Positions 14,213 to 33,347 are shown, counted from the first letter of the stretch. The stretch: DNA of 64,000 nt from Patescibacteria group bacterium (GCA_028712155.1 JAQTQO010000003.1:2309-66308), one strand, 5' to 3'. Made by a program: numbers and translations. The notes: generated by a model not told the origin, from the sequence alone.

Positions 14213-15748
14213 ATGCGGAGAAAACATATCTTGACGTTTGGATTGATCATCCTTGCAGTTTTCGGAATATCGGTAACCGGAAAAATCATGCTGCGTAAAC
14301 GCGCCGTACCGTCCGATATAAATGCGTCGTCGCCGGAAACGGCGGGGCGGGTCCGCTTGGCGGCGGTCGCGGGAAGTTTCTACCCCGGCGAACCAAAGGA
14401 TCTGTCCGCCACGGTGGACCGGTATCTGGCAAACGCCACACTGCCGCAAGCCAGGGGGCAGATTTTAGCGCTCGTCGTTCCTCATGCCGGCTACCAGTAT
14501 TCCGGCCAAGTGGCGGCCTATGGCTATAAACTGCTCGTCGGTCAGCACATCGATACGGTGGTGCTCGTCGGGAGCAGCCACACCGCCAGGTTTCCGGGCG
14601 CGTCCATTTACGCCGAGGGCAGCTGGCGCACGCCGCTGGGCGATGTGGCGGTCGATCGCGACGTTGCTTTGGCGATCATTTCCGCCGCACCGCGGGTGCG
14701 GTTCATTGAATCCGTGCACGTCGAGGAGCATTCGCTCGAAGTGCAACTGCCGTTTTTGCAGAAAACGTTGAAGAATTTCAACATTGTTCCGATCATGCTG
14801 GGCAACGATGGTGAAACCGATTACCAGATGTTGGCGCAGGCGATCATCACGGCGGTCAAGGGCAAAAACGTGCTTGTGGTGGCGAGTTCCGACCTGTCTC
14901 ATTACCCCGGTTACCGCGACGCCAAAACCGTTGACGCAAAAACAATTCAGGGAATTCTGGGCGGCGATTGTCAGAAATTGGAAAAAGTTATCGCGGATTT
15001 GGAGACGCAAGAAATTCCCGCGGCTGCCACGTTTGCCTGCGGCGAGGATGCCATCAAGACCGTGATGTTGGTGGCCCAAGCCGCCGGTGCGGATGAAATC
15101 AAGTTGCTGAACGCCGCCAACTCCGGCGACGTGTCCGGCGACCGCAGCCGCGTGGTCGGTTACGCCGCGATCGGTTTTTTCGGCCCGCGCCGCGGCAATG
15201 CATTGAGCACGGCGGAGCAGCAGCGGCTGCTTGGAATCGCCAAGACTTCAGTGGAAACGTACGTGCGTACCGGCAAGACGACAAAGTTGAACGTGACTGA
15301 GCCGGCGCTGCAAGCGCACGTCGGCGCGTTCGTCACGCTGAAGGAGAACGGCCGGTTGCGCGGATGCATCGGACGTTTTTCTCCCACTGACGCCCCGCTC
15401 TGGCAGGTAGTGTCGCAGATGGCGATGGCGGCGGCCACGGAGGACCAGCGGTTTCTGCCGGTGGAACCGGCCGAACTCGGAGCCCTCCGTTACGAGATTT
15501 CCGTGTTGGGCGACAACGAAAAGATCAGTGATGCCAGCCGGATTCAGCTCGGCAAGCACGGCGTCATGGTGCGCGCCGGTGCACGCTCCGGCGTTTTTTT
15601 GCCGCAGGTCGCCACCGATACGCAGTGGGATTTGGATCGCTTCCTGGGCGAACTCTGCGCGCAGAAAGCCGGGCTCGCTTATGATTGCTGGAAGGACTCG
15701 CGCACGGAACTGTTCGTGTTTACCGCCCAGGTGTTCGGTGATGAGTAA
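14213..15748 (+). CDS. fused MEMO1-like (AmmeMemoRadiSam protein B) and AMMECR1 domain protein with N-terminal membrane anchor
   Basis: N-terminal TM 'ILTFGLIILAVFGISV'; MEMO1 motifs 'AGSFYPGEP', 'VVPHAGYQYSG'; C-terminal AMMECR1 'GAFVTLKENGRLRGCIGRFSP'. Confidence 0.8.
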   Translation: MRRKHILTFGLIILAVFGISVTGKIMLRKRAVPSDINASSPETAGRVRLAAVAGSFYPGEPKDLSATVDRYLANATLPQARGQILALVVPHAGYQYSGQVAAYGYKLLVGQHIDTVVLVGSSHTARFPGASIYAEGSWRTPLGDVAVDRDVALAIISAAPRVRFIESVHVEEHSLEVQLPFLQKTLKNFNIVPIMLGNDGETDYQMLAQAIITAVKGKNVLVVASSDLSHYPGYRDAKTVDAKTIQGILGGDCQKLEKVIADLETQEIPAAATFACGEDAIKTVMLVAQAAGADEIKLLNAANSGDVSGDRSRVVGYAAIGFFGPRRGNALSTAEQQRLLGIAKTSVETYVRTGKTTKLNVTEPALQAHVGAFVTLKENGRLRGCIGRFSPTDAPLWQVVSQMAMAAATEDQRFLPVEPAELGALRYEISVLGDNEKISDASRIQLGKHGVMVRAGARSGVFLPQVATDTQWDLDRFLGELCAQKAGLAYDCWKDSRTELFVFTAQVFGDE

Positions 15749-23468: not shown

Positions 23469-24521
23469 CTATGCGGGTGTTGCCGGCTGGTATACCAGCT
23501 GCCCGCACGCGGCGGCAATGTCTGCACCCATCGCGTGGCGCTCGGTCACGTCGCAGCCGCCAGTGAGCAGGATATTCTTGAAACCGTCGATCCGTTCCCG
23601 CTGGCTGGGGGTAAACGGTTTGCCGGACACCGGGTTGTACGGGATGACGTTGATTTTCTTTGCGCCGGTGGTTTTCAAATATGCCGCCAATTCCGTGGCA
23701 TCGGCGACGGAATCATTGACCCCGTTGAGCAGGATATATTCGAAGGTCAGGTACCGGCGGCGGTTGCCGAGGGTCTGCTGGTAGCGCCGCGACCATTCGG
23801 CAAGCTGCGGCAGGAAATTCTGCGCCGTGGACGGAACGATTTTATTTCGCAGCTTCTCGTTGGCGCTGTGGAGCGATATCGCGATGCGCACGGGAGGCCA
23901 GCCCGGGTCGGTGAGCAGCTGCTCGAGCATCGGCAGCAGGCCGACGGTGGATACCGTGAGATGCGTGGGGCCAAGATCGGTGTTTTTTAACAAGGCGGCA
24001 ACTGCGGCTTTCACGTTTTCGTAGTTGGCGAGCGGTTCGCCCATGCCCATCATGACGAGATTGCTGATGCGCGGCGGCAGGTCGGGGCGGTCGTGGAGAA
24101 ATTTTTGCCAGCTGCGGAACTGGTCGACGATCTCGTCGGCGGTGAGGCTGCGTTTGAGGCCCATGGTACCGGTGGCGCAAAATGAACAGCCCATACCGCA
24201 GCCGATCTGTGACGAGACGCAGATCGTCCAACTGCCGCGGGCGTTTTTCATCAGGACGGTTTCGTAGCGCAGGCCGTCGGCTGCCTGCAGCACCGACTTG
24301 TAGGTATCATGCGCCTGACTTTCCAGCGTGCGCACCACCGTGTGCGTAACCCATGGTATGGCCGCGTTCAGCGTCTGGCGCATTGCTTGCGGCAAAACGG
24401 TGATGCCGTCCCAGCCGTTAACGGCAGGGTCAAAGAACGCGCGTTCGATCTGTGCCAATCGATAGCGCGGCGCGTCCGGGAAAAGCGTCGCGAAGTGTTG
24501 GGCGCGGGAAATGGTTGGCAT
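23469..24521 (-). CDS. rlmN: 23S rRNA (adenine2503-C2)-methyltransferase, radical SAM
   Basis: 'CVSSQIGCGMGCSFCATG' radical SAM CxxxCxxC plus the C-terminal conserved Cys; RlmN/Cfr family length and layout. Confidence 0.88.
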   Translation of the reverse strand: MPTISRAQHFATLFPDAPRYRLAQIERAFFDPAVNGWDGITVLPQAMRQTLNAAIPWVTHTVVRTLESQAHDTYKSVLQAADGLRYETVLMKNARGSWTICVSSQIGCGMGCSFCATGTMGLKRSLTADEIVDQFRSWQKFLHDRPDLPPRISNLVMMGMGEPLANYENVKAAVAALLKNTDLGPTHLTVSTVGLLPMLEQLLTDPGWPPVRIAISLHSANEKLRNKIVPSTAQNFLPQLAEWSRRYQQTLGNRRRYLTFEYILLNGVNDSVADATELAAYLKTTGAKKINVIPYNPVSGKPFTPSQRERIDGFKNILLTGGCDVTERHAMGADIAAACGQLVYQPATPA

Positions 24522-24652: not shown

Positions 24653-25996
24653 TTGGCAATCACAAAACAGGATATCGTTATGCCGAAAAGGAATGATAAA
24701 GTTAGCGACCCGTTTGACGGAGTCTCGCGGTCAGGTTTGGGTTTGCCCACGCGGTATTCAAGCGTCTGGTTGATTGTGGTCGGTGGATTGGTGGTTGTTG
24801 GCGCAATCGGTGCGGTATGGTTTTTGCCGCAATTGCATCGTGCGGTGGGTCCGGCGCCGGCGCCGTTCGCGTTGCCCAGCGCGACGGTGGCGCCGGCGGT
24901 AAGCCCGGCGGCAGCCGTCCCCGCGACGAGTCCCGTAGCGGCCCCAACGCCATCAAGTCAAGCGGCCGCCACGTTTAATGAATTCGGGCGCACGTTCCGC
25001 GAGTACGGACGGGAGTATAGCGATGCGGGCGATCTGTTTTTCGGCGGGTACGCTAACGTCGGCGGCACGCTGGCGTACACTGCGCGGCAAGGGAATCAAC
25101 TGTTTGTCGTGCACCGCGGCGGCATGATCGGGCAAGATCTTCCTGACCTTGGAGGGATTTTGGAAATTTTGGATAACGGCGGGAAGCCGGCGTTCCTCGC
25201 GCTGCGATCGGACCTTTCGCCGTTGGGCGGTTTTGGGTCGTATATTTTCTTTGACGGACAGCGCATCGGTGCGTCGTATGCGTACGTGCGGGATCCGGCG
25301 AGCATCAGCGGGAAACTAGCGTATGTTGGAATAATCAAGGATTCGACCCGTCCGGGCGGACAGCGCTCCGTGGTGGTCTACGACGGCAAAGAGTACGGCC
25401 GGGCATACGACGAGGTGGAAACTCCGTTCGCGCTGGAAGGGAAACTGGCATTTTTTGCCACGCGCGGCGCGGACTTTATGGTGGTGACCGTCTACGACGG
25501 CAAGGAAAGTATACTGCCGGAAAGCCAGTTTGACGTCCCGGCAGTGAAAGATGCCGCGGGTCGCGTCGTGTTTGTTTACGATAATGGTACCGCCCGGGAC
25601 CAGGCGGTTTTCAACGGCAAGGCCGTGACGGTGGATATGGGAACCGACCGGTCATACGCGTGGTATGACGGGCAGAAGCTCGGCGCGGAGTACGACGAAG
25701 TGCTCGAAGTCGCGCCGGTCGGAGGGAAGCTGGCGCTGCTCGTTCAAAAAAAAGGCCGGACGCTGATTGCGTACGACGGTAAAGAGTACGGGCATCATTA
25801 TGATTCCGTCTATGATTTGCCGGGCGAGAAAAGCGATGCGTACAGCCTGCGGATGCCGTACCGGATGGGTAAACCGCAAGCGATGTTTTCCGCGATTAAA
25901 TTCGTCGGTGACGTGGGCGGGAAGCTGACGTATCTGGTGACCGTCGGATTTTCCGCCGATGGTAGCCCGAAGCAAATTATCGTGCAGGAGGAGTAA
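24653..25996 (+). CDS. membrane-anchored repeat protein (WG/KWG-like beta-repeats)
   Basis: N-terminal TM, Ala/Pro-rich linker, then at least six degenerate ~40-aa repeats 'GKLAY...VVYDGKEYG..YDEV'; TTG start with SD GGGAG. Confidence 0.55.
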   Translation: MAITKQDIVMPKRNDKVSDPFDGVSRSGLGLPTRYSSVWLIVVGGLVVVGAIGAVWFLPQLHRAVGPAPAPFALPSATVAPAVSPAAAVPATSPVAAPTPSSQAAATFNEFGRTFREYGREYSDAGDLFFGGYANVGGTLAYTARQGNQLFVVHRGGMIGQDLPDLGGILEILDNGGKPAFLALRSDLSPLGGFGSYIFFDGQRIGASYAYVRDPASISGKLAYVGIIKDSTRPGGQRSVVVYDGKEYGRAYDEVETPFALEGKLAFFATRGADFMVVTVYDGKESILPESQFDVPAVKDAAGRVVFVYDNGTARDQAVFNGKAVTVDMGTDRSYAWYDGQKLGAEYDEVLEVAPVGGKLALLVQKKGRTLIAYDGKEYGHHYDSVYDLPGEKSDAYSLRMPYRMGKPQAMFSAIKFVGDVGGKLTYLVTVGFSADGSPKQIIVQEE

Positions 25997-26010: not shown

Positions 26011-27600
26011 TTACCCGAGGTCCTTCACCAGGTACGTACCCGCTCGGCGGTAGCCGAGACGGCGGTAGTAGGGGCGCACGCCGACGCCGGAAATGACGGC
26101 GATTTTTTTTATGCCGCGGCGGCGGGTGATATTTTCGGCCGCGGCCATCAGCTTTTTGCCCAGTCCCGTGTGCTGGACCGGGCCTTTCTTTGACAGCGGC
26201 GTGAGTTCGCCGTAGGTGTGCAGTTCGCGGATGATCGCCGCGTTTTTTAATTCTGGTATGAAGTTTTGCTCCGGATGGTCGTTGAAACGCAATCGCAAAA
26301 AAGCGTAGAGGATTTTGGCGTCTTTTGATTCGTAGCTCAAGAAGTGCTCCACTCCTTCCGACGCCCGATATGTTTGCTTGCGGTAAACGATTCCTTGCGG
26401 TCTGTTTCCTGCATCCTGTTTTCCCATCCGGTGGCCGGCTTCGCGGCAGCGAATGCACCGGCAGCCGGTGAACTCTTTCGCGATCATTTGGCGGAGGTTG
26501 GTGATTTTGTTACCGGCGACAATGCTTTGGGCCGGAATGTCGCGCACCAGCCGCGTGATGCGCACATACGGCGGAGTGATTTTTTTTATGGCGATAATGA
26601 TTCTTTTTAATTCGGCGTCCGTGTACGGCCGGAATTTTTTTTGCCGCCACCAGCGGTGGAGCAACGTGCCTTTTGTCACGACGCAGGGGTAGATTTTCAA
26701 AATGTCCGGCTGGAAATCTGAACTGGTATATATTTTTTTAAACATCACCAAGTCTTTTGCGACGGTGGAACCGGGCAAATTGGGCATCAGGTGATAGTGG
26801 ACTTTGAATCCGGCCTGCTTGAGTAGCCGGGTAGCGGTTATCGTTTCCCGCACAGTGTGGTCGCGACGGTTCTTTTCGAGCACGCGGTCGTCAATATTCT
26901 GGACACCGATTTCCACGCGCGTCACGCCAAGCTGCCGCAGAAACCGCAGCTCATCTTCCGTGACGTATTCTGGACGAGTTTCGATACTGATGCCGATGAT
27001 GCGATTGTGTACGTGCTCGTTTTGGCGCTGGGCGGCTGTCAGCGTTGGCGACGTTTTTCCGTTGGCGGCGTCAAAGCAGCGCTTGATAAACAAAGATTGA
27101 TATTTCCGTGGGTATGCCGACCACGTGCCGCCGAGGATGATGAGCTCGACCTTGTCGGTAGCATGGCCGTTGCCGTAGAGGATTTGCAAACGCCCGCGGA
27201 CCTGGCGGTAGGGGTCAAATTTTTCCCGCACGGCGCGCATGATGGCCGGCTCATTCGGCAAATAACTTTTCGGCATGCCCAAGACATTGGGGCAGTACGC
27301 GCAGCGACCCGGGCAGGGGAATGGTTTGGTAATCACCGTGACCGGCGCAACACCGGAAAGTGTTCGAATGCTGCGTTTGAGCAATCCCTGCTCGATTGCC
27401 GGATTTCTCTTCACTTCCTTTCGTTCAACCATCCGGCGGTATGCTAAAAGCACCGCAGCGTTCGACGGCGTTGTGCGCGTAAGTTTTCCGGCCAGACGAT
27501 CCTTTTTCGCCACAATGTCGCGCGGCAGTTTGAGCCGGCTTTGGGCCAGTGCGCGGGCGATTTTTTTTGCTGCAGTGTCCATTTCGGTTGATAGTTCCAC
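26011..27600 (-). CDS. elp3: tRNA uridine(34) carboxymethyltransferase-like Elp3 (radical SAM + GNAT acetyltransferase)
   Basis: Radical SAM 'FPCPGRCAYCP', Elp3 core and C-terminal GNAT ('GLGKKLMAAAE'); 529 aa like archaeal/bacterial Elp3; GTG start with a TATAAT 14 nt upstream. Confidence 0.85.
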   Translation of the reverse strand: MELSTEMDTAAKKIARALAQSRLKLPRDIVAKKDRLAGKLTRTTPSNAAVLLAYRRMVERKEVKRNPAIEQGLLKRSIRTLSGVAPVTVITKPFPCPGRCAYCPNVLGMPKSYLPNEPAIMRAVREKFDPYRQVRGRLQILYGNGHATDKVELIILGGTWSAYPRKYQSLFIKRCFDAANGKTSPTLTAAQRQNEHVHNRIIGISIETRPEYVTEDELRFLRQLGVTRVEIGVQNIDDRVLEKNRRDHTVRETITATRLLKQAGFKVHYHLMPNLPGSTVAKDLVMFKKIYTSSDFQPDILKIYPCVVTKGTLLHRWWRQKKFRPYTDAELKRIIIAIKKITPPYVRITRLVRDIPAQSIVAGNKITNLRQMIAKEFTGCRCIRCREAGHRMGKQDAGNRPQGIVYRKQTYRASEGVEHFLSYESKDAKILYAFLRLRFNDHPEQNFIPELKNAAIIRELHTYGELTPLSKKGPVQHTGLGKKLMAAAENITRRRGIKKIAVISGVGVRPYYRRLGYRRAGTYLVKDLG

Positions 27601-27621
27601 AGGTAAAGGATACCATTATAC

Positions 27622-28332
27622 ATGAGAGCTATGAAACAAGCCACGGCACAAAAAATATTGCAGCAGACCAAGGAAACGTATAACTCGATCGCGAGTGACT
27701 TTAATGCTACGCGGGGATATCTGTGGCCCGGTTTTGATAAGTTTTTGGCGTACGTGCCAAAAAATTCCCAGGTGCTTGATGTCGGCTGCGGTAACGGTCG
27801 GCTGGTGGAATTATTCGCGCACCACGCCGTCACCTATACGGGAATAGATGCGAGCGAGGGGCAGGTAACTTGGGCGAGAAAAAACCATCCGGTCGGCCGC
27901 TTTATGGTGGGCGATACTTTGCAGTTGCCGTTTCCCGACGCGTCATTTGACGCAGTGTTCATGATCGCGGTACTGCATCATATCCCAAGTCGCGCATTGC
28001 GCCAGCGTGCCTTGCAGGAAGTGCGGCGTGTGCTCAAACCGGGTGGTGTGTTCATTATGACCAACTGGGATTACTTCAACCGGACATTTGAAAGAAAAAT
28101 TATCGCTCAATTTACCATCAGAAAAATTTTCGGTAAATCAGAGCTTGATTTTAAGGACATTTTGAAGCCGTGGGCGCATTCCGGTCTAAGCCGTTACTGC
28201 CATTGTTTTACCATGGGCGAAATGCGACGGGCTGTAGCCGCGGTCGGTTTTGCCGTCAAAGAATCTTTCTACACGGCCAAGAGGGGGCGCAACGCCGAGC
28301 GGAATCTCGTGGTCATTGCCAGGAAACGGTAA
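27622..28332 (+). CDS. class I SAM-dependent methyltransferase, Trm9/ALKBH8-like (putative tRNA mcm5U methyltransferase)
   Basis: 'YNSIASDFNATRGYLWP', 'VLDVGCGNG', 'MIAVLHHIPSRALRQRALQEVRRVLKPGG', 'RYCHCFTMGEM', 'RNLVVIARK' parallel Trm9/ALKBH8 blocks (as recalled); divergent from elp3 by 21 bp. Confidence 0.6.
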   Translation: MRAMKQATAQKILQQTKETYNSIASDFNATRGYLWPGFDKFLAYVPKNSQVLDVGCGNGRLVELFAHHAVTYTGIDASEGQVTWARKNHPVGRFMVGDTLQLPFPDASFDAVFMIAVLHHIPSRALRQRALQEVRRVLKPGGVFIMTNWDYFNRTFERKIIAQFTIRKIFGKSELDFKDILKPWAHSGLSRYCHCFTMGEMRRAVAAVGFAVKESFYTAKRGRNAERNLVVIARKR

Positions 28333-29980: not shown

Positions 29981-30062
29981 GCTCGTTCGGTTCGTTGAAA
30001 AAGTGTTACTGTTTTGGACATTTCAAGCCACCAGGAATTCAAGTTACAGGAGGTACGTTGTG

Positions 30063-30611
30063 ATGAATAAGAAAAACAAACGGCGCTGGCTGCCCAAGAC
30101 CGACGATGAGCGGCGGCTGCTGTGCCGGGCGGCGCAGTTCGTGGTGCACGGACGGGAGTGCGGAGTGAAGTCGCTCACGGCAGAGCTCGACATCGCGCCG
30201 GCACTGGCCAGAAATCTCCAGTGGTGGATGGAGGATCACGAGGTGATCGAAGGCTGTCGCAACGGTCCCGGCCGACGGAAAGTGCTGGTACCGGACCTCA
30301 AGGCGCTGGGCAGGCGGTTTCCGCCGTTCGCCAAACTCATCATCGATGACGGCAACCATACGTCGCCATCCCCGTCTCCTTTACCGGCCGCTCGCGCGCC
30401 GGCACCACTGCCCGATGAGGCGGACGTCGGATCGCCCGACAAGGGGTTTGCCGCACCCGGAATTTCGGCGAAGGATCTCGAACGCCTGTCCGGGAAATTA
30501 CGGCAGCTGCTGGCTGCCCAACGCCTGGTGTTGGGCGACACGCCCGGCACAAAAATCATCCAGGAGACGATCGTTTTGTTCCAGAAGCTCGTCGAAGAGC
30601 GTAGCCACTGA
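30063..30611 (+). CDS. hypothetical protein (possible N-terminal HTH, Pro/Ala-rich linker)
   Basis: SD AGGAGG 9 nt upstream of the ATG; own promoter and terminator. Confidence 0.5.
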   Translation: MNKKNKRRWLPKTDDERRLLCRAAQFVVHGRECGVKSLTAELDIAPALARNLQWWMEDHEVIEGCRNGPGRRKVLVPDLKALGRRFPPFAKLIIDDGNHTSPSPSPLPAARAPAPLPDEADVGSPDKGFAAPGISAKDLERLSGKLRQLLAAQRLVLGDTPGTKIIQETIVLFQKLVEERSH

Positions 30612-30695
30612 ACCTTGGCAAATACTTCACCGCGTTACTCGCGCCGCGACCCATAGTCGTTGGCGCGTTTTTTAATGCGCATTGCGCGGCCATGA

Positions 30696-30724
30696 TTGAC
30701 GTCACTTCCGTTCCATGGTAATAC
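30696..30724 (+). promoter_or_regulatory. sigma70-like promoter TTGACG-N17-TAATAC
   Basis: -35 at 30696-30701, -10 at 30719-30724, upstream of the Cys-rich gene. Confidence 0.45.
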
Positions 30725-30782
30725 GGGAACGCGTTTTTTGAACCTTGTCATTTTGCTCGGTAAACCCGGTAGCGGAGGAGCC

Positions 30783-31997
30783 ATGACCTTCGAACAACCG
30801 TCGAACGCATTGCTCATCGCAACGCGTTGGGATGAGCTTTCGCCTCCTCCGGGGCCAAAACGGAGGACGGAACTTCTTGCAGCCCAGCAGAGGGCGCTGG
30901 GAACCGAAGTTCCCGAGAATGTTTACTGTAAAATGCACGGAGAAGAGATTTCCGTGCGCCGGTGCTTAGCGTCCCAGTTCGACCCCAAGTGCCTGGGCTG
31001 CAGCGCCGTTTCCCATCTCTGCCATCGTTGCTGGTTGCAACCGATTGCGATGGCCGAACTGGAGCTGTGCGCGGAATGCCTGGAGTTCTTCCTGGCGGAA
31101 GAGAAATCCCGCGGCCAGCCGCAGCTGGATGACGAACGGATCGTTTGGTGTCTCGTTGAGAAACGAAAAGTGAAAGTGTTCGGTTGCCGTCGGCGGCAAC
31201 TGCGCAGCGCCAAGTCGTGCTTCGGCTGCGGCCAACCCGCACGCGTATGCGGGTGCAAGGAATTTCCCGTGTGCTATCCCCAGGACGGCTACTGCCGCCG
31301 CTGTGCGGTGAAAACCTACGGCGGCGATGAGTACGCGCCGCTCATTGCACGGGCGCACGCGCCCGGACGGTACCGGGAACTCTGCGGGCTGCATCGGGCA
31401 AGAGTTTCGAGCCGGGCGAACCCTTCTTTGACAAATCCTTTGCCGGTTCCCGCGGCGGATGCGGCAGCCGACGGTCGTTTGACGGGAATCGATGCGTTGG
31501 CATGGGAAGCTGCCATGCGCATGGTTATGGATTTCCAGGAACACGGCAAGGCGAACACGGGACAAATTTGGCTCGCCAAACAAGGGAGAATTCCCATCGC
31601 AGAGGCCCATGCGCTGCAGCTGCGCCTCGAAAAGCTCGGGGTGCTTGGCCCCAGTAGCGGCACCACGCAACCGCGCCGGTTACTGGTGAGGTCGCTTGAA
31701 GAGCTTGAGCGGGTAGTCCGCCCGAAGCTGAAACCGTCGGGTGTTCCCGGCACACCGGCAGTTGCGCCAAGCGATGCCGCATTAGCGCTGCGGCAGATCG
31801 AAGAGCTCCTGGGCGCACGACCGAACGGCACGTTGGCGCCCGGGCAGGTCGGCACTCAGCTGCAAGTCATCTGCCAATACCTCGAGCCGCTCGGCTTTCC
31901 AACGATCGTTGCCGTGCTGCAACGGGCCAGCGACGGCCTGAACGCGTTCGGGCAGATCATCGGCCAGATGGATAGCTGGCTCAAGCGTACCAAGTGA
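30783..31997 (+). CDS. hypothetical Cys-rich protein (multiple CxxC zinc-finger-like motifs)
   Basis: SD GGAGGAG directly before the ATG; about 22 Cys in the N-terminal 200 aa, arranged as repeated CxxC and CxC pairs. Confidence 0.55.
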   Translation: MTFEQPSNALLIATRWDELSPPPGPKRRTELLAAQQRALGTEVPENVYCKMHGEEISVRRCLASQFDPKCLGCSAVSHLCHRCWLQPIAMAELELCAECLEFFLAEEKSRGQPQLDDERIVWCLVEKRKVKVFGCRRRQLRSAKSCFGCGQPARVCGCKEFPVCYPQDGYCRRCAVKTYGGDEYAPLIARAHAPGRYRELCGLHRARVSSRANPSLTNPLPVPAADAAADGRLTGIDALAWEAAMRMVMDFQEHGKANTGQIWLAKQGRIPIAEAHALQLRLEKLGVLGPSSGTTQPRRLLVRSLEELERVVRPKLKPSGVPGTPAVAPSDAALALRQIEELLGARPNGTLAPGQVGTQLQVICQYLEPLGFPTIVAVLQRASDGLNAFGQIIGQMDSWLKRTK

Positions 31998-32025
31998 CGC
32001 CGCATTTTGAACATTCTCTGGCACA

Positions 32026-32060
32026 GATACCCCTCTGTGCCAGATTTTTTTATAAAAAAA
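32026..32060 (+). terminator. intrinsic terminator after the Cys-rich gene
   Basis: Perfect 11-bp stem 'tctggcacaga'/'tctgtgccaga', loop 'tacccc', followed by T7. Confidence 0.8.
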
Positions 32061-32062
32061 GA

Positions 32063-32093
32063 GCGGGGACGGTGATCTCCGCTCAACGTTGAA
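32063..32093 (-). terminator. candidate terminator for parB (minus strand)
   Basis: Stem 'gagcgg'/'ccgctc' preceded on plus by A7 (a U-tract on minus). Confidence 0.5.
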
Positions 32094-32118
32094 GGTTCCG
32101 CATGCGTGCGCCGCACCG

Positions 32119-32919
32119 TCACGATTTGAGTTTTTCCTCAATGAATGCTACGAGCGTGCGCAGCTCGGGGCCAAGCGTCTCCCTCCTTCCGCGGGGAAGG
32201 TCTTTCCAGGCGCCATCGAGCGCGTCGTAGAGTTCCTGGACGAGGTTGGTGATGCGCTCGAGCGAAACGGTCTTGGGGCGCTTTGGCTTGTTGGGGCGCT
32301 TGGGCTTCGCCCGGTTCGAGGTTTGCAGGAAGCCTTCCAGGTCGCTGACCGACCACCGGCGGGTGGCGGCCAGTTGGGCCGCCCGTTCCTGCACGACCGA
32401 GTCACCGGTCATGGCGTTAAGCATCTTCCCGTGCCCGAGTCCGATCTCGCCCGAATCGAGCAGGTCCTGGACGCGGGGTGCGAGTTCCAGCAGCGCGAGA
32501 CGTTCGCGCACGTAGATCGGGGACTTGCCGAGACGTTCGGCAACGCGTTCGACGCTGCCTGCGCAGTGGTCATCGCGGAGCCGCTGGATGCCCTCGGCCT
32601 CCTCCATGATGGTGAGGTTTTCGCGCTCGACGTTGTCCGTCAGTGCGAGCGACGCCGCTTCGGCGTCATCAGCAGCCTTGACCGTGGCCGGAATCTTGTC
32701 CCGGCCAAGGTGGACGAACGCTTGCAGGCGACGGGCGCCGGCGATGAGTTCGAAGCGGTTGCCCTTCCTGCGTACGATGACGGGGTTGATCAGCCCCTCG
32801 ATGCGGATGCTCTCCGCGAGCGATCCGATGCCGTCCGCGGCGTTCCGTCGGCGCGGTTGGTACGGGCTGGGGTCGATGTTGGCGATCGGCAGTTCCACGG
32901 AAACCGTGGATGGCGTCAT
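32119..32919 (-). CDS. parB: ParB/Spo0J-family partition/nuclease-like protein (orphan, no adjacent parA)
   Basis: ParB box 'NPVIVRRKGNRFELIAGARRLQA', HTH 'AERLGKSPIYVRERLALLEL'; SD GGGAGGTG before ATG 32919. Confidence 0.8.
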   Translation of the reverse strand: MTPSTVSVELPIANIDPSPYQPRRRNAADGIGSLAESIRIEGLINPVIVRRKGNRFELIAGARRLQAFVHLGRDKIPATVKAADDAEAASLALTDNVERENLTIMEEAEGIQRLRDDHCAGSVERVAERLGKSPIYVRERLALLELAPRVQDLLDSGEIGLGHGKMLNAMTGDSVVQERAAQLAATRRWSVSDLEGFLQTSNRAKPKRPNKPKRPKTVSLERITNLVQELYDALDGAWKDLPRGRRETLGPELRTLVAFIEEKLKS

Positions 32920-33059
32920 GATCCACCTCCCTTCACGAGCCGTAGGTTGGATTCGCAAATTCCGAAAAGGTCAACGATCTGCCCACCAGCCTACTGGTTT
33001 TATGTAAAAAACGCAAACGTTTGGTGGCCGATAAATCTTTTTTCCGATATACTAGGACT

Positions 33060-33347
33060 ATGCCGAAGTTATCGTCAATATTTTCCGGCGTCCGTTACGG
33101 GCGGTATGACAAGCTCGTCCATTTTTTTGCCAGCGCCGCTATTGCCGTAATTTTTTTGCCCATCCTGCCGTTACCGCAGGCGGCAGCCCTGAGTTTGAGT
33201 TTCGGTATTGCCAAAGAGCTGTACGATTGGCTGTGGCGTCACGGCAGTTTTGACTGGTACGATATTTGCGCCGACGCTTGCGGGGTGGCGGCGGCAACCG
33301 CCGCGTACGGGGTGATGCTCCCGATCATGCTCCGGTCTGCGGGGTAG
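33060..33347 (+). CDS. small membrane protein, VanZ-like
   Basis: 'YDKLVHFFASAAIA' (DKxxHF) and 'GIAKELYDW...DICADACG' resemble the VanZ family; a TATACT 7 nt upstream suggests a leaderless transcript. Confidence 0.45.
   Translation: MPKLSSIFSGVRYGRYDKLVHFFASAAIAVIFLPILPLPQAAALSLSFGIAKELYDWLWRHGSFDWYDICADACGVAAATAAYGVMLPIMLRSAG

Follow-up and report, generated by a model that had tools for sequence, protein, structure and literature searches.

A predicted two-enzyme Elongator-type pathway for wobble uridine encoded by a divergent Elp3 and Trm9-like gene pair in a Patescibacteria bacterium

Can a bacterium produce 5-methoxycarbonylmethyluridine (mcm5U) at the wobble position (U34) of its tRNAs with no more than two linked genes? 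This nucleoside has so far been regarded as eukaryotic and archaeal, and the question is raised by positions 26,011 to 28,332 of a stretch of DNA from a Patescibacteria group bacterium (GCA_028712155.1 JAQTQO010000003.1:2309-66308), which was analysed over its whole length of 64,000 nucleotides (the window). A gene for a stand-alone Elp3 protein and a gene for a Trm9-like class I methyltransferase dependent on S-adenosylmethionine (SAM) lie head-to-head at this locus. Judging from sequence comparisons, we consider it likely that the pair gives this bacterium of the Patescibacteria (candidate phyla radiation, CPR) a minimal Elongator-type pathway for wobble uridine, made up of only two enzymes. 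The initial annotation had placed two open reading frames (ORFs) here, on opposite strands and 21 bp apart. Our ORF listing reads both out at exactly these coordinates and strands, and the four methyltransferase peptide blocks quoted in that annotation are all found in the translation. The 21-bp spacing holds for the start codons of the ORFs and becomes 30 bp with a later methyltransferase start:

26011..27600, minus strand: elp3, stand-alone Elp3 with radical-SAM, Radical_SAM_C and GNAT domains, 529 amino acids (aa), GTG start
27582, minus strand: alternative elp3 start, an in-frame ATG at residue 7
27601..27621: divergent intergenic region, 21 bp between the start codons, or 30 bp if the methyltransferase begins at 27631
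27622..28332, plus strand: Trm9-like class I SAM-dependent methyltransferase gene, 236 aa, ATG start

Assignment of the two proteins

The membership of the 529-aa protein in the Elp3 family is secure and unambiguous. It scores 529.4 bits against the NCBIfam model TIGR01211 (cut-off 350), with residues 62-528 aligned on positions 44-522 of the 522-position profile. Its Pfam domains are Radical_SAM (PF04055), Radical_SAM_C (PF16199), and the GNAT domains Acetyltransf_10/1 (PF13673, PF00583), and the GNAT matches are above cut-off and span residues 461-521. The closest solved structures in a PDB search were the archaeal MinElp3 (6ia8, E = 1e-125) and DmcElp3 of Dehalococcoides mccartyi (5l7j, E = 2e-119), and the characteristic motifs of the window protein align with theirs:

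27376..27600, minus strand: basic N-terminal extension, residues 1-75, with 18 Lys and Arg versus 8 Asp and Glu
27292..27315, minus strand: radical-SAM [4Fe-4S] triad C96-x3-C100-x2-C103 (CPGRCAYC), aligned with CPhGKCIFC of MinElp3
26446..26463, minus strand: interdomain linker cysteines C380/C382/C385 (CRCIRC), aligned with CRCIRC of MinElp3 and DmcElp3
26158..26175, minus strand: GNAT acetyl-CoA-binding motif QHTGLG, residues 476-481, aligned with QHmGyG of MinElp3 and QHrGLG of DmcElp3

The Zn-binding cysteine motif of the linker is conserved in bacterial and archaeal Elp3 proteins (Lin et al., PMC6367351). An extended N-terminus, which is present in archaeal and eukaryotic Elp3 but not in DmcElp3, has a role in tRNA binding (PMC6367351). 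The PDB alignments of the window Elp3 begin at query residue 72-75, i.e., after its own N-terminal extension.

The initial annotation had likened the methyltransferase to Trm9/ALKBH8, and each of the more specific comparisons bears this likeness out. When the protein was used as a phmmer query of the PDB, Yarrowia Trm9 (5cm2_Z) was the only top match that aligned beyond the Rossmann core. The profile of its 36-member family likewise placed Trm9 5cm2_Z first, at 98 bits and over the full length, followed by a match of 80 bits confined to the Rossmann core. With hhalign, the family aligned with 16 named fungal Trm9 proteins at a probability of 100% and E = 1.9e-42 over 202 columns (residues 15-236 on 19-233). 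UbiE and CmoM (formerly SmtA) from E. coli K-12 were used as negative controls. The hidden Markov model (HMM) of fungal Trm9 gave 99 bits over the full length of the window methyltransferase versus 7.5 bits for UbiE and 5.5 bits for CmoM, so the choice between Trm9 and UbiE/SmtA, which the initial annotation had proposed as a check, falls to Trm9. In the opposite direction, the CPR-family HMM gave 105-114 bits to fungal Trm9 over the full length, and 47 bits to UbiE and 35 bits to CmoM over the Rossmann core only, the UbiE match being limited to positions 3-145 of 231 in the profile. The methyltransferase reaches 53 bits against the UbiE model TIGR01934, the cut-off of which is 158. In BLASTP, it shares 30-33% identity with Trm9 over 210-223 aa and 26% with E. 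coli CmoM over 121 aa (E = 1e-4).

In a set of 3,309 ORFs (80 aa or longer) taken from the window and the 80 loci described below, the Trm9 HMM had no match in any locus other than the methyltransferase ORF at the position that the query had matched. Several family members have been named TRM9 or ALKBH8 independently, by the KO/KEGG-based automated annotation of the Joint Genome Institute (JGI). The predicted model of the window protein, with a predicted local distance difference test score (pLDDT) of 93, has the Rossmann topology. Taken as a sequence assignment, the window methyltransferase is specifically Trm9-like and a predicted tRNA (carboxymethyluridine34-5-O)-methyltransferase.

The best Foldseek match to this model is PDB 3sm3 (Methanosarcina mazei Q8PUK2; E = 1.6e-18), an uncharacterised methyltransferase from structural genomics. 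It also aligned over the full length with the family profile, and could represent an archaeal enzyme of the Trm9 type that has so far gone unrecognised.

Mutagenesis of yeast Trm9 (ScTrm9) indicates that R29, D72, H116, W145, W168, R241, Y243, and N271 are needed for activity and that H115 contributes (Létoquart et al., PMC4678810). We drew the residue equivalences from a sequence alignment of 36 CPR, 8 Chloroflexota, and 16 fungal Trm9 proteins. The equivalents of R29, D72, H115, H116, W145, W168, R241, and N271 are kept in 35-36 of the 36 CPR proteins, 7-8 of the 8 Chloroflexota proteins, and all 16 fungal proteins. The window methyltransferase thus conserves eight of the nine residues defined by mutagenesis, and the exception is the Y243 position. 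The aligned sites are distributed along the gene as follows:

27712..27714, plus strand: R31 (ScTrm9 R29), present in 36/36 CPR, 7/8 aligned Chloroflexota, and 16/16 fungal proteins
27775..27798, plus strand: SAM-binding motif I, LDVGCGNG, residues 52-59
27976..27981, plus strand: H119-H120 (ScTrm9 H115/H116)
28066..28173, plus strand: lid region from W149 to W184 (ScTrm9 W145 and W168), both tryptophans invariant
28192..28203, plus strand: R191-Y192-C193-H194, matching the RYYH block of Trm9; R191 is ScTrm9 R241
28303..28305, plus strand: N228 (ScTrm9 N271), invariant in the CPR, Chloroflexota, and fungal groups

In addition, D76, which corresponds to ScTrm9 D72 and is the acidic residue after strand β2, is invariant. 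In the yeast enzyme, R29 has been proposed to bind the carboxylate of 5-carboxymethyluridine (cm5U) and N271 to recognise the O2/N3 face of the uracil, and H116 is essential for activity (PMC4678810). The lid of the CPR members contains an insertion of ~15-20 residues (about 154-169) that is absent from fungal Trm9 and from the Dehalococcoidia proteins. The insertion is seen in the alignment, with the consensus K-T-L-K-I-x-G-K-S-x-L-D-F-K-D, and as helix H154-169 in the predicted model.

Linkage of the two genes in Patescibacteria and Chloroflexota

In a scan with the family alignment of one representative genome for each GTDB species, at least 506 relatives of the methyltransferase were confirmed, of which the best 80 loci were kept with 10-kb flanks. 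These loci, found from the methyltransferase, have 32-45% identity to the query and come mostly from many lineages of Patescibacteria, together with one Anaerolineae and one Limnocylindria genome. In tblastn with the window Elp3, an Elp3 gene lies within 10 kb of the methyltransferase in 66 of the 80 species-level loci: immediately upstream and divergent in 59, adjacent in tandem in one (L054), and 2-4 kb away in six. Five further loci have less than 1 kb of upstream sequence and are not judgeable for Elp3. Clustering of the ORFs over the 80 loci placed the methyltransferase family in 79 and Elp3 in 67, and the next commonest neighbour family in 18. The pairing is far beyond chance, since 66 of the 80 loci have it and no other neighbour family occurs in more than 18. 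A metagenome scan with the window Elp3 yielded a single locus (L081), which contains an 82%-identical Elp3 relative and the same gene pair. Because the pair persists in several arrangements while its other neighbours change, we read its retention amid reshuffled surroundings as a signature of functional coupling.

The same partner is met when the search starts from Elp3. The DmcElp3 sequence was rebuilt from the PDB alignment and used to fetch Dehalococcoides-type Elp3 proteins, which gave nine neighbourhoods chosen from Elp3 alone, all with Chloroflexota-type Elp3. Eight of the nine contain a Methyltransf_11 gene of 186-224 aa head-to-head with Elp3, and the conserved adjacency that the initial annotation had asked about is thus seen from both starting points. 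Three of these Chloroflexota methyltransferases were scored and obtained 109-118 bits with the CPR-family HMM and 67-70 bits with the fungal Trm9 HMM. In the complete D. mccartyi genome CP019867 (L082), the 224-aa Trm9-like methyltransferase gene is on the opposite strand from Elp3 with a 43-bp spacer:

L082:4283-6380, equal to CP019867.1 567446-569543: D. mccartyi pair, with the methyltransferase at L082:4283-4957

By its sequence, then, a Trm9-like partner gene stands beside the gene of DmcElp3, which alone among bacterial Elp3 proteins has been both crystallised and assayed.

Two further features accompany the pair in Dehalococcoidia. An ORF of ~72 aa is conserved in seven loci, one to two genes downstream of the Trm9-like gene and on the same strand, and has the invariant pattern CPxC...GPY(K/R)CWKCR of a four-cysteine zinc ribbon. 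Its positions, all on the minus strand, are:

L082:3423-3650
L083:3387-3605
L085:4005-4217
L086:2967-3185
L087:2691-2909
L088:3002-3226
L089:2964-3179

This ORF gave no above-threshold Pfam match and no significant match to PDB entries or Trm112, and neither the window nor the CPR loci contain it. We considered it as a Trm112-like or Kti11-like factor and set it aside on these grounds. The pair also lies two to four genes from QueH (PF02677), which is upstream of the pair, in L082, L083, L085, L086, and L087, with RuvB and GNAT acetyltransferase genes alongside. PF02677 QueH is an epoxyqueuosine reductase, another enzyme modifying tRNA position 34, and its proximity could be either local synteny or a small tRNA-modification gene cluster.

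The short spacer of the window pair bears on its starts and its regulation. A 100%-identical NCBI protein of 233 aa, from a Patescibacteria metagenome-assembled genome, starts three residues after the ATG of the window ORF. Since this protein, the 82%-identical L081 relative, and the family alignment all begin at MKQ, the true methyltransferase start is probably the second ATG at 27631 (233 aa), which would leave a gap of 30 bp. The initial annotation had described overlapping divergent promoters around one consensus element:

27620->27615, minus strand: TATAAT hexamer, 14 nt upstream of the elp3 GTG

The hexamer is present at that distance, but the sequence alone does not demonstrate overlapping promoters. 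A sigma-70 promoter scan of 27300-27950 was at chance level, with one site, on the plus strand, where 0.5 would be expected, and the lone -10-like consensus hexamer is all that speaks for the overlapping promoters. A shared regulatory region is the least-supported part of our proposal; it is suggested by the conservation of the head-to-head arrangement with a very short spacer.

The predicted pathway and its alternatives

In the pathway that we propose, the stand-alone Elp3 would first use its radical-SAM cluster and acetyl-CoA to place a carboxymethyl group at position C5 of U34 in certain tRNAs, generating cm5U34. We infer this activity from membership in the family, and the formation of cm5U34 in vitro has been shown for archaeal Elp3 (PMC5372719, PMC7663514). 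The Trm9-like methyltransferase would subsequently transfer a methyl group from SAM onto the cm5U carboxylate to form mcm5U34, and the product would be the 2-thiolated mcm5s2U34 if the organism also thiolates U34. It is the conservation of the active site together with the gene linkage that leads us to infer this methyl-esterification. By analogy with the Trm9 model (PMC4678810), R31, H119/H120, and R191 would position the carboxylate, N228 and H119 would read the uracil, and W149 and W184 would stack on the bases. The initial annotation had proposed this combination of Elp3 and a Trm9-type methyltransferase as a bacterial mcm5U34 pathway; homology, residues, and conserved linkage all support it as a prediction.

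Several observations weigh against the prediction. Among Pfam models, the methyltransferase matches only generic ones (Methyltransf_11 at 96 bits, Methyltransf_25, and similar models), and in NCBIfam no model reaches its cut-off, all matches being sub-threshold. In the window protein, C193 occupies the Y243 position of ScTrm9, which varies across the CPR family, with Tyr in 17 of 36 members and Ile, Val, Leu, Cys, or Phe in the others, as compared with Tyr in 8/8 Chloroflexota and 16/16 fungal proteins. The Y243A mutant of yeast Trm9 keeps only ~10% activity (PMC4678810). We treat C193 as a change at a contributing, not an essential, residue, and its neighbour Y192 (ScTrm9 Y242) is conserved. 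No Elp3 was found within 10 kb in nine of the 80 loci, all nine with full flanks. The scan of the 64-kb window detected no tRNA genes, so no candidate substrates are in view. Finally, according to a review from the Glatt laboratory, bacterial Elp3 occurs only in Dehalococcoides, and derivatives of xcm5U34 still lack direct evidence in bacteria that have Elp3 (PMC7663514).

The first alternative concerns Trm112. Eukaryotic Trm9 and Trm112 form an obligate heterodimer via a hydrophobic patch and a β-zipper, a feature that characterises the holoenzyme of eukaryotes and archaea and not the catalytic family as such; Trm112 covers the patch residues V59, F78, V102, A110, P112, and F116 of Trm9 (Yarrowia numbering) and is obligatory for the solubility and activity of the eukaryotic enzyme (PMC4678810). 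Haloferax Trm9 also partners Trm112, and bacterial Trm112 homologues exist, with unknown roles (PMC6144793). The window enzyme could likewise be a true Trm9 that depends on a small activator (Trm112 or an analogue) whose gene lies elsewhere in the genome, in which case the pair alone would be an incomplete pathway. The bacterial proteins still have F116, D117, and P110 of the interface, and the zinc-ribbon ORF stands beside the methyltransferase in the seven Dehalococcoidia loci. We nonetheless regard the need for an activator as unlikely. The retained F116 and D117 fall in the generic Methyltransf_11 motif, and two of the six hydrophobic core contacts have become charged or polar: the V59 position is Lys, Arg, or Gln in 34/36 CPR and 8/8 Chloroflexota proteins, and the F78 position is Asp, Glu, Asn, Thr, Ser, or Gln in 36/36 and 8/8, respectively. 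The polar hot spots for Trm112, E100 and R115, are not conserved in the bacterial methyltransferases. Neither a motif regular expression nor tblastn and phmmer searches with E. coli YcaR turned up a Trm112-like ORF in the 64-kb window or the 90 loci (91 sequences), and the Dehalococcoidia zinc ribbon, as noted, does not occur in the window or the CPR loci and lacks a significant match to Trm112 or the PDB. Because two hydrophobic contact positions have turned charged or polar in the bacterial members, the bacterial Trm9-like enzyme probably works without a Trm112 activator.

A second alternative keeps the order of the two enzymes and changes the product. The methyltransferase would act after Elp3 on U34, but the end product would not be simple mcm5U: it might be an amide or hydroxylated derivative beyond mcm5U, a product of a cm5s2U-only substrate, or a bacterial-specific derivative. 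In yeast, mcm5U and 5-carbamoylmethyluridine (ncm5U) are reported to be related in a more complex way than by a linear route, the trm9 mutant accumulating ncm5U (PMC3110198), and the in vivo product of bacterial Elp3 is unknown according to the literature (PMC7663514). The lid-helix insertion of the CPR members lies beside the active site and, like the variable Y243 position, could alter substrate handling. On the other side, the residues that would hold the carboxylate and the uracil (the equivalents of R29, H115/H116, R241, and N271) are invariant, and in the CPR loci the pair has no further conserved companion gene. A product other than simple mcm5U seems to us improbable.

That the methyltransferase is instead a generic UbiE/SmtA-like class I enzyme acting on a small molecule or protein, and stands beside Elp3 by inherited gene order, is very improbable given the core-only UbiE and CmoM/SmtA matches to the family HMM (47 and 35 bits) versus full-length Trm9 matches of 105-114 bits, the TIGR01934 score of 53 bits with its cut-off of 158, the invariance of Trm9-specific substrate residues outside the SAM site, and the persistence of the pair amid changing neighbours in two phyla and three arrangements (divergent, tandem, and 2-4 kb apart).

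Returning to the two-enzyme mcm5U34 pathway, the chemistry and both enzyme families are already known, so no new chemistry is involved, and some members are already called TRM9 in KEGG-based annotation. What would be new is a bacterial Trm9, probably independent of Trm112, coupled to a stand-alone Elp3. Trm9 orthologues outside eukaryotes have been predicted in two archaeal orders only (PMC5372719). In the bacterial-Elp3 literature searched, where Elp3 is described as rare or restricted to Dehalococcoides, a bacterial Trm9 is not mentioned, and the literature searched contained no report combining Elp3 or Trm9 with Patescibacteria or the candidate phyla radiation. An Elp3-methyltransferase pairing in bacteria or Chloroflexota, including D. 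mccartyi, is likewise unreported in the literature searched, a scope that did not include the Glatt 2016 DmcElp3 paper. We hold with moderate confidence the wider proposal that Patescibacteria and Chloroflexota (Dehalococcoides) would make mcm5U34 or mcm5s2U34 with two linked genes, for Elp3 and a Trm112-independent Trm9.

If this is true, the pair may replace the canonical bacterial MnmE/MnmG route in these lineages, and the bacterial Elp3 pathway would be widespread over hundreds of species instead of a Dehalococcoides rarity. The D. mccartyi enzymes, of which Elp3 is already crystallised, would then be a minimal system for reconstitution of the whole pathway. A Trm9-type enzyme as the constant genomic partner of bacterial Elp3 yields a testable prediction of the role of bacterial Elp3 in a cultivable organism, and a probably Trm112-independent Trm9 is offered for mechanistic work. 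The distribution of the pair also bears on the evolution of U34-modification pathways, i.e., on vertical descent versus transfer between archaea and episymbiotic CPR bacteria.

The surrounding window and comparison with known systems

The scanned ORFs of the window, which has a guanine-plus-cytosine (G+C) content of 57.8%, resemble what a CPR chromosome ordinarily carries: a [NiFe]-hydrogenase module, a sigma factor, a P-type ATPase, and MTAP, as well as an RlmN-like gene, ParB, type IV pilus genes, and UvrABC. The window scan gave no Rfam matches, and MnmE, MnmG, MnmA, and Trm112 were not found among the scanned window ORFs. Near the pair and beyond it, the following ORFs were noted:

23469-24521, minus strand: RlmN/Cfr-family radical-SAM gene, two genes from Elp3 (TIGR00048 at 265 bits, below the cut-off of 290)
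24653-25996, plus strand: 447-aa protein flanked by the RlmN-like gene and Elp3, unmatched in Pfam and NCBIfam
14213-15748, plus strand: 511-aa ORF in which Memo-like and AMMECR1 domains are fused
30003-30611 and 30696-31997: two ORFs before the ParB-like gene, without a family match, the second Cys-rich with several CxxC pairs
32119-32958, minus strand: ParB-like gene within 30003-33150
32089-33150: long antisense ORF overlapping the ParB-like gene, probably spurious in G+C-rich DNA

Memo-like and AMMECR1 are usually separate proteins. An N-terminal hydrophobic segment, a linker rich in Ala and Pro, and a recurring GGKLA[FY] motif can be made out by eye in the 447-aa protein and suggest a surface protein of a repeat or β-propeller-like type. 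The region 30003-33150 may be a remnant of a partition system or mobile element. The radical-SAM domain of Elp3 has been described as RlmN-like (PMC6367351). We rejected the RlmN-like gene as a partner of Elp3; it does not belong to the neighbour families that recur over the loci, and its proximity is probably coincidental.

Compared with the eukaryotic route, in which Elongator is followed by Trm9-Trm112 or ALKBH8-TRMT112 to give mcm5U34 and mcm5s2U34, the window pair has the same two-domain architecture in Elp3, full-length homology to Trm9 (the hhalign E = 1.9e-42), and eight of the nine active-site and SAM-site residues. However, Elp1, Elp2, and Elp4-6 are absent here, as is usual for prokaryotic Elp3, and the methyltransferase has neither the AlkB nor the RRM domain of ALKBH8. 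In contrast to eukaryotic Trm9-Trm112, no linked Trm112 was found, charged or polar residues stand at two contact positions, the residue at the Y243 position varies, and the CPR proteins possess the additional lid helix. The two genes are, moreover, physically adjacent in bacteria, unlike in the eukaryotic system.

The archaeal systems are similar in their stand-alone Elp3, and in Sulfolobus solfataricus the genes for Elp3 and Trm9 also lie in one cluster (PMC6144793, PMC5372719). The window Elp3 is slightly closer to MinElp3 than to DmcElp3 (424 versus 403 bits), and the basic N-terminal extension is common to it and MinElp3. The archaeal Trm9, compared here by description, differs in two respects. 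HvoTrm9 of Haloferax volcanii is complexed with Trm112, having been validated as a Trm112 partner with its function assigned by sequence similarity (PMC6144793), and archaeal Trm9 is reported only in Sulfolobales and Halobacteriales, whereas the pair described here belongs to bacteria and is common among Patescibacteria and Chloroflexota.

In the case of D. mccartyi, DmcElp3 (PDB 5l7j) is also a bacterial stand-alone Elp3, and its gene has the head-to-head Trm9-like neighbour at 43 bp. DmcElp3 is without the basic N-terminal extension (PMC6367351). In the D. mccartyi methyltransferase, the lid-helix insertion of the CPR members is missing and the Y243 position is still Tyr, and the 72-aa zinc-ribbon ORF is found near the pair in Dehalococcoidia loci.

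E. coli CmoM (SmtA), which converts cmo5U34 to mcmo5U34, is similarly a bacterial class I methyltransferase and is annotated, by its product name, as acting on a modified U34. CmoM methyl-esterifies a carboxylate, in a chemistry analogous to that of Trm9. It belongs to a different family: the CPR-family HMM gives it 35 bits, confined to the Rossmann core, and the Trm9 HMM gives it 5.5 bits.

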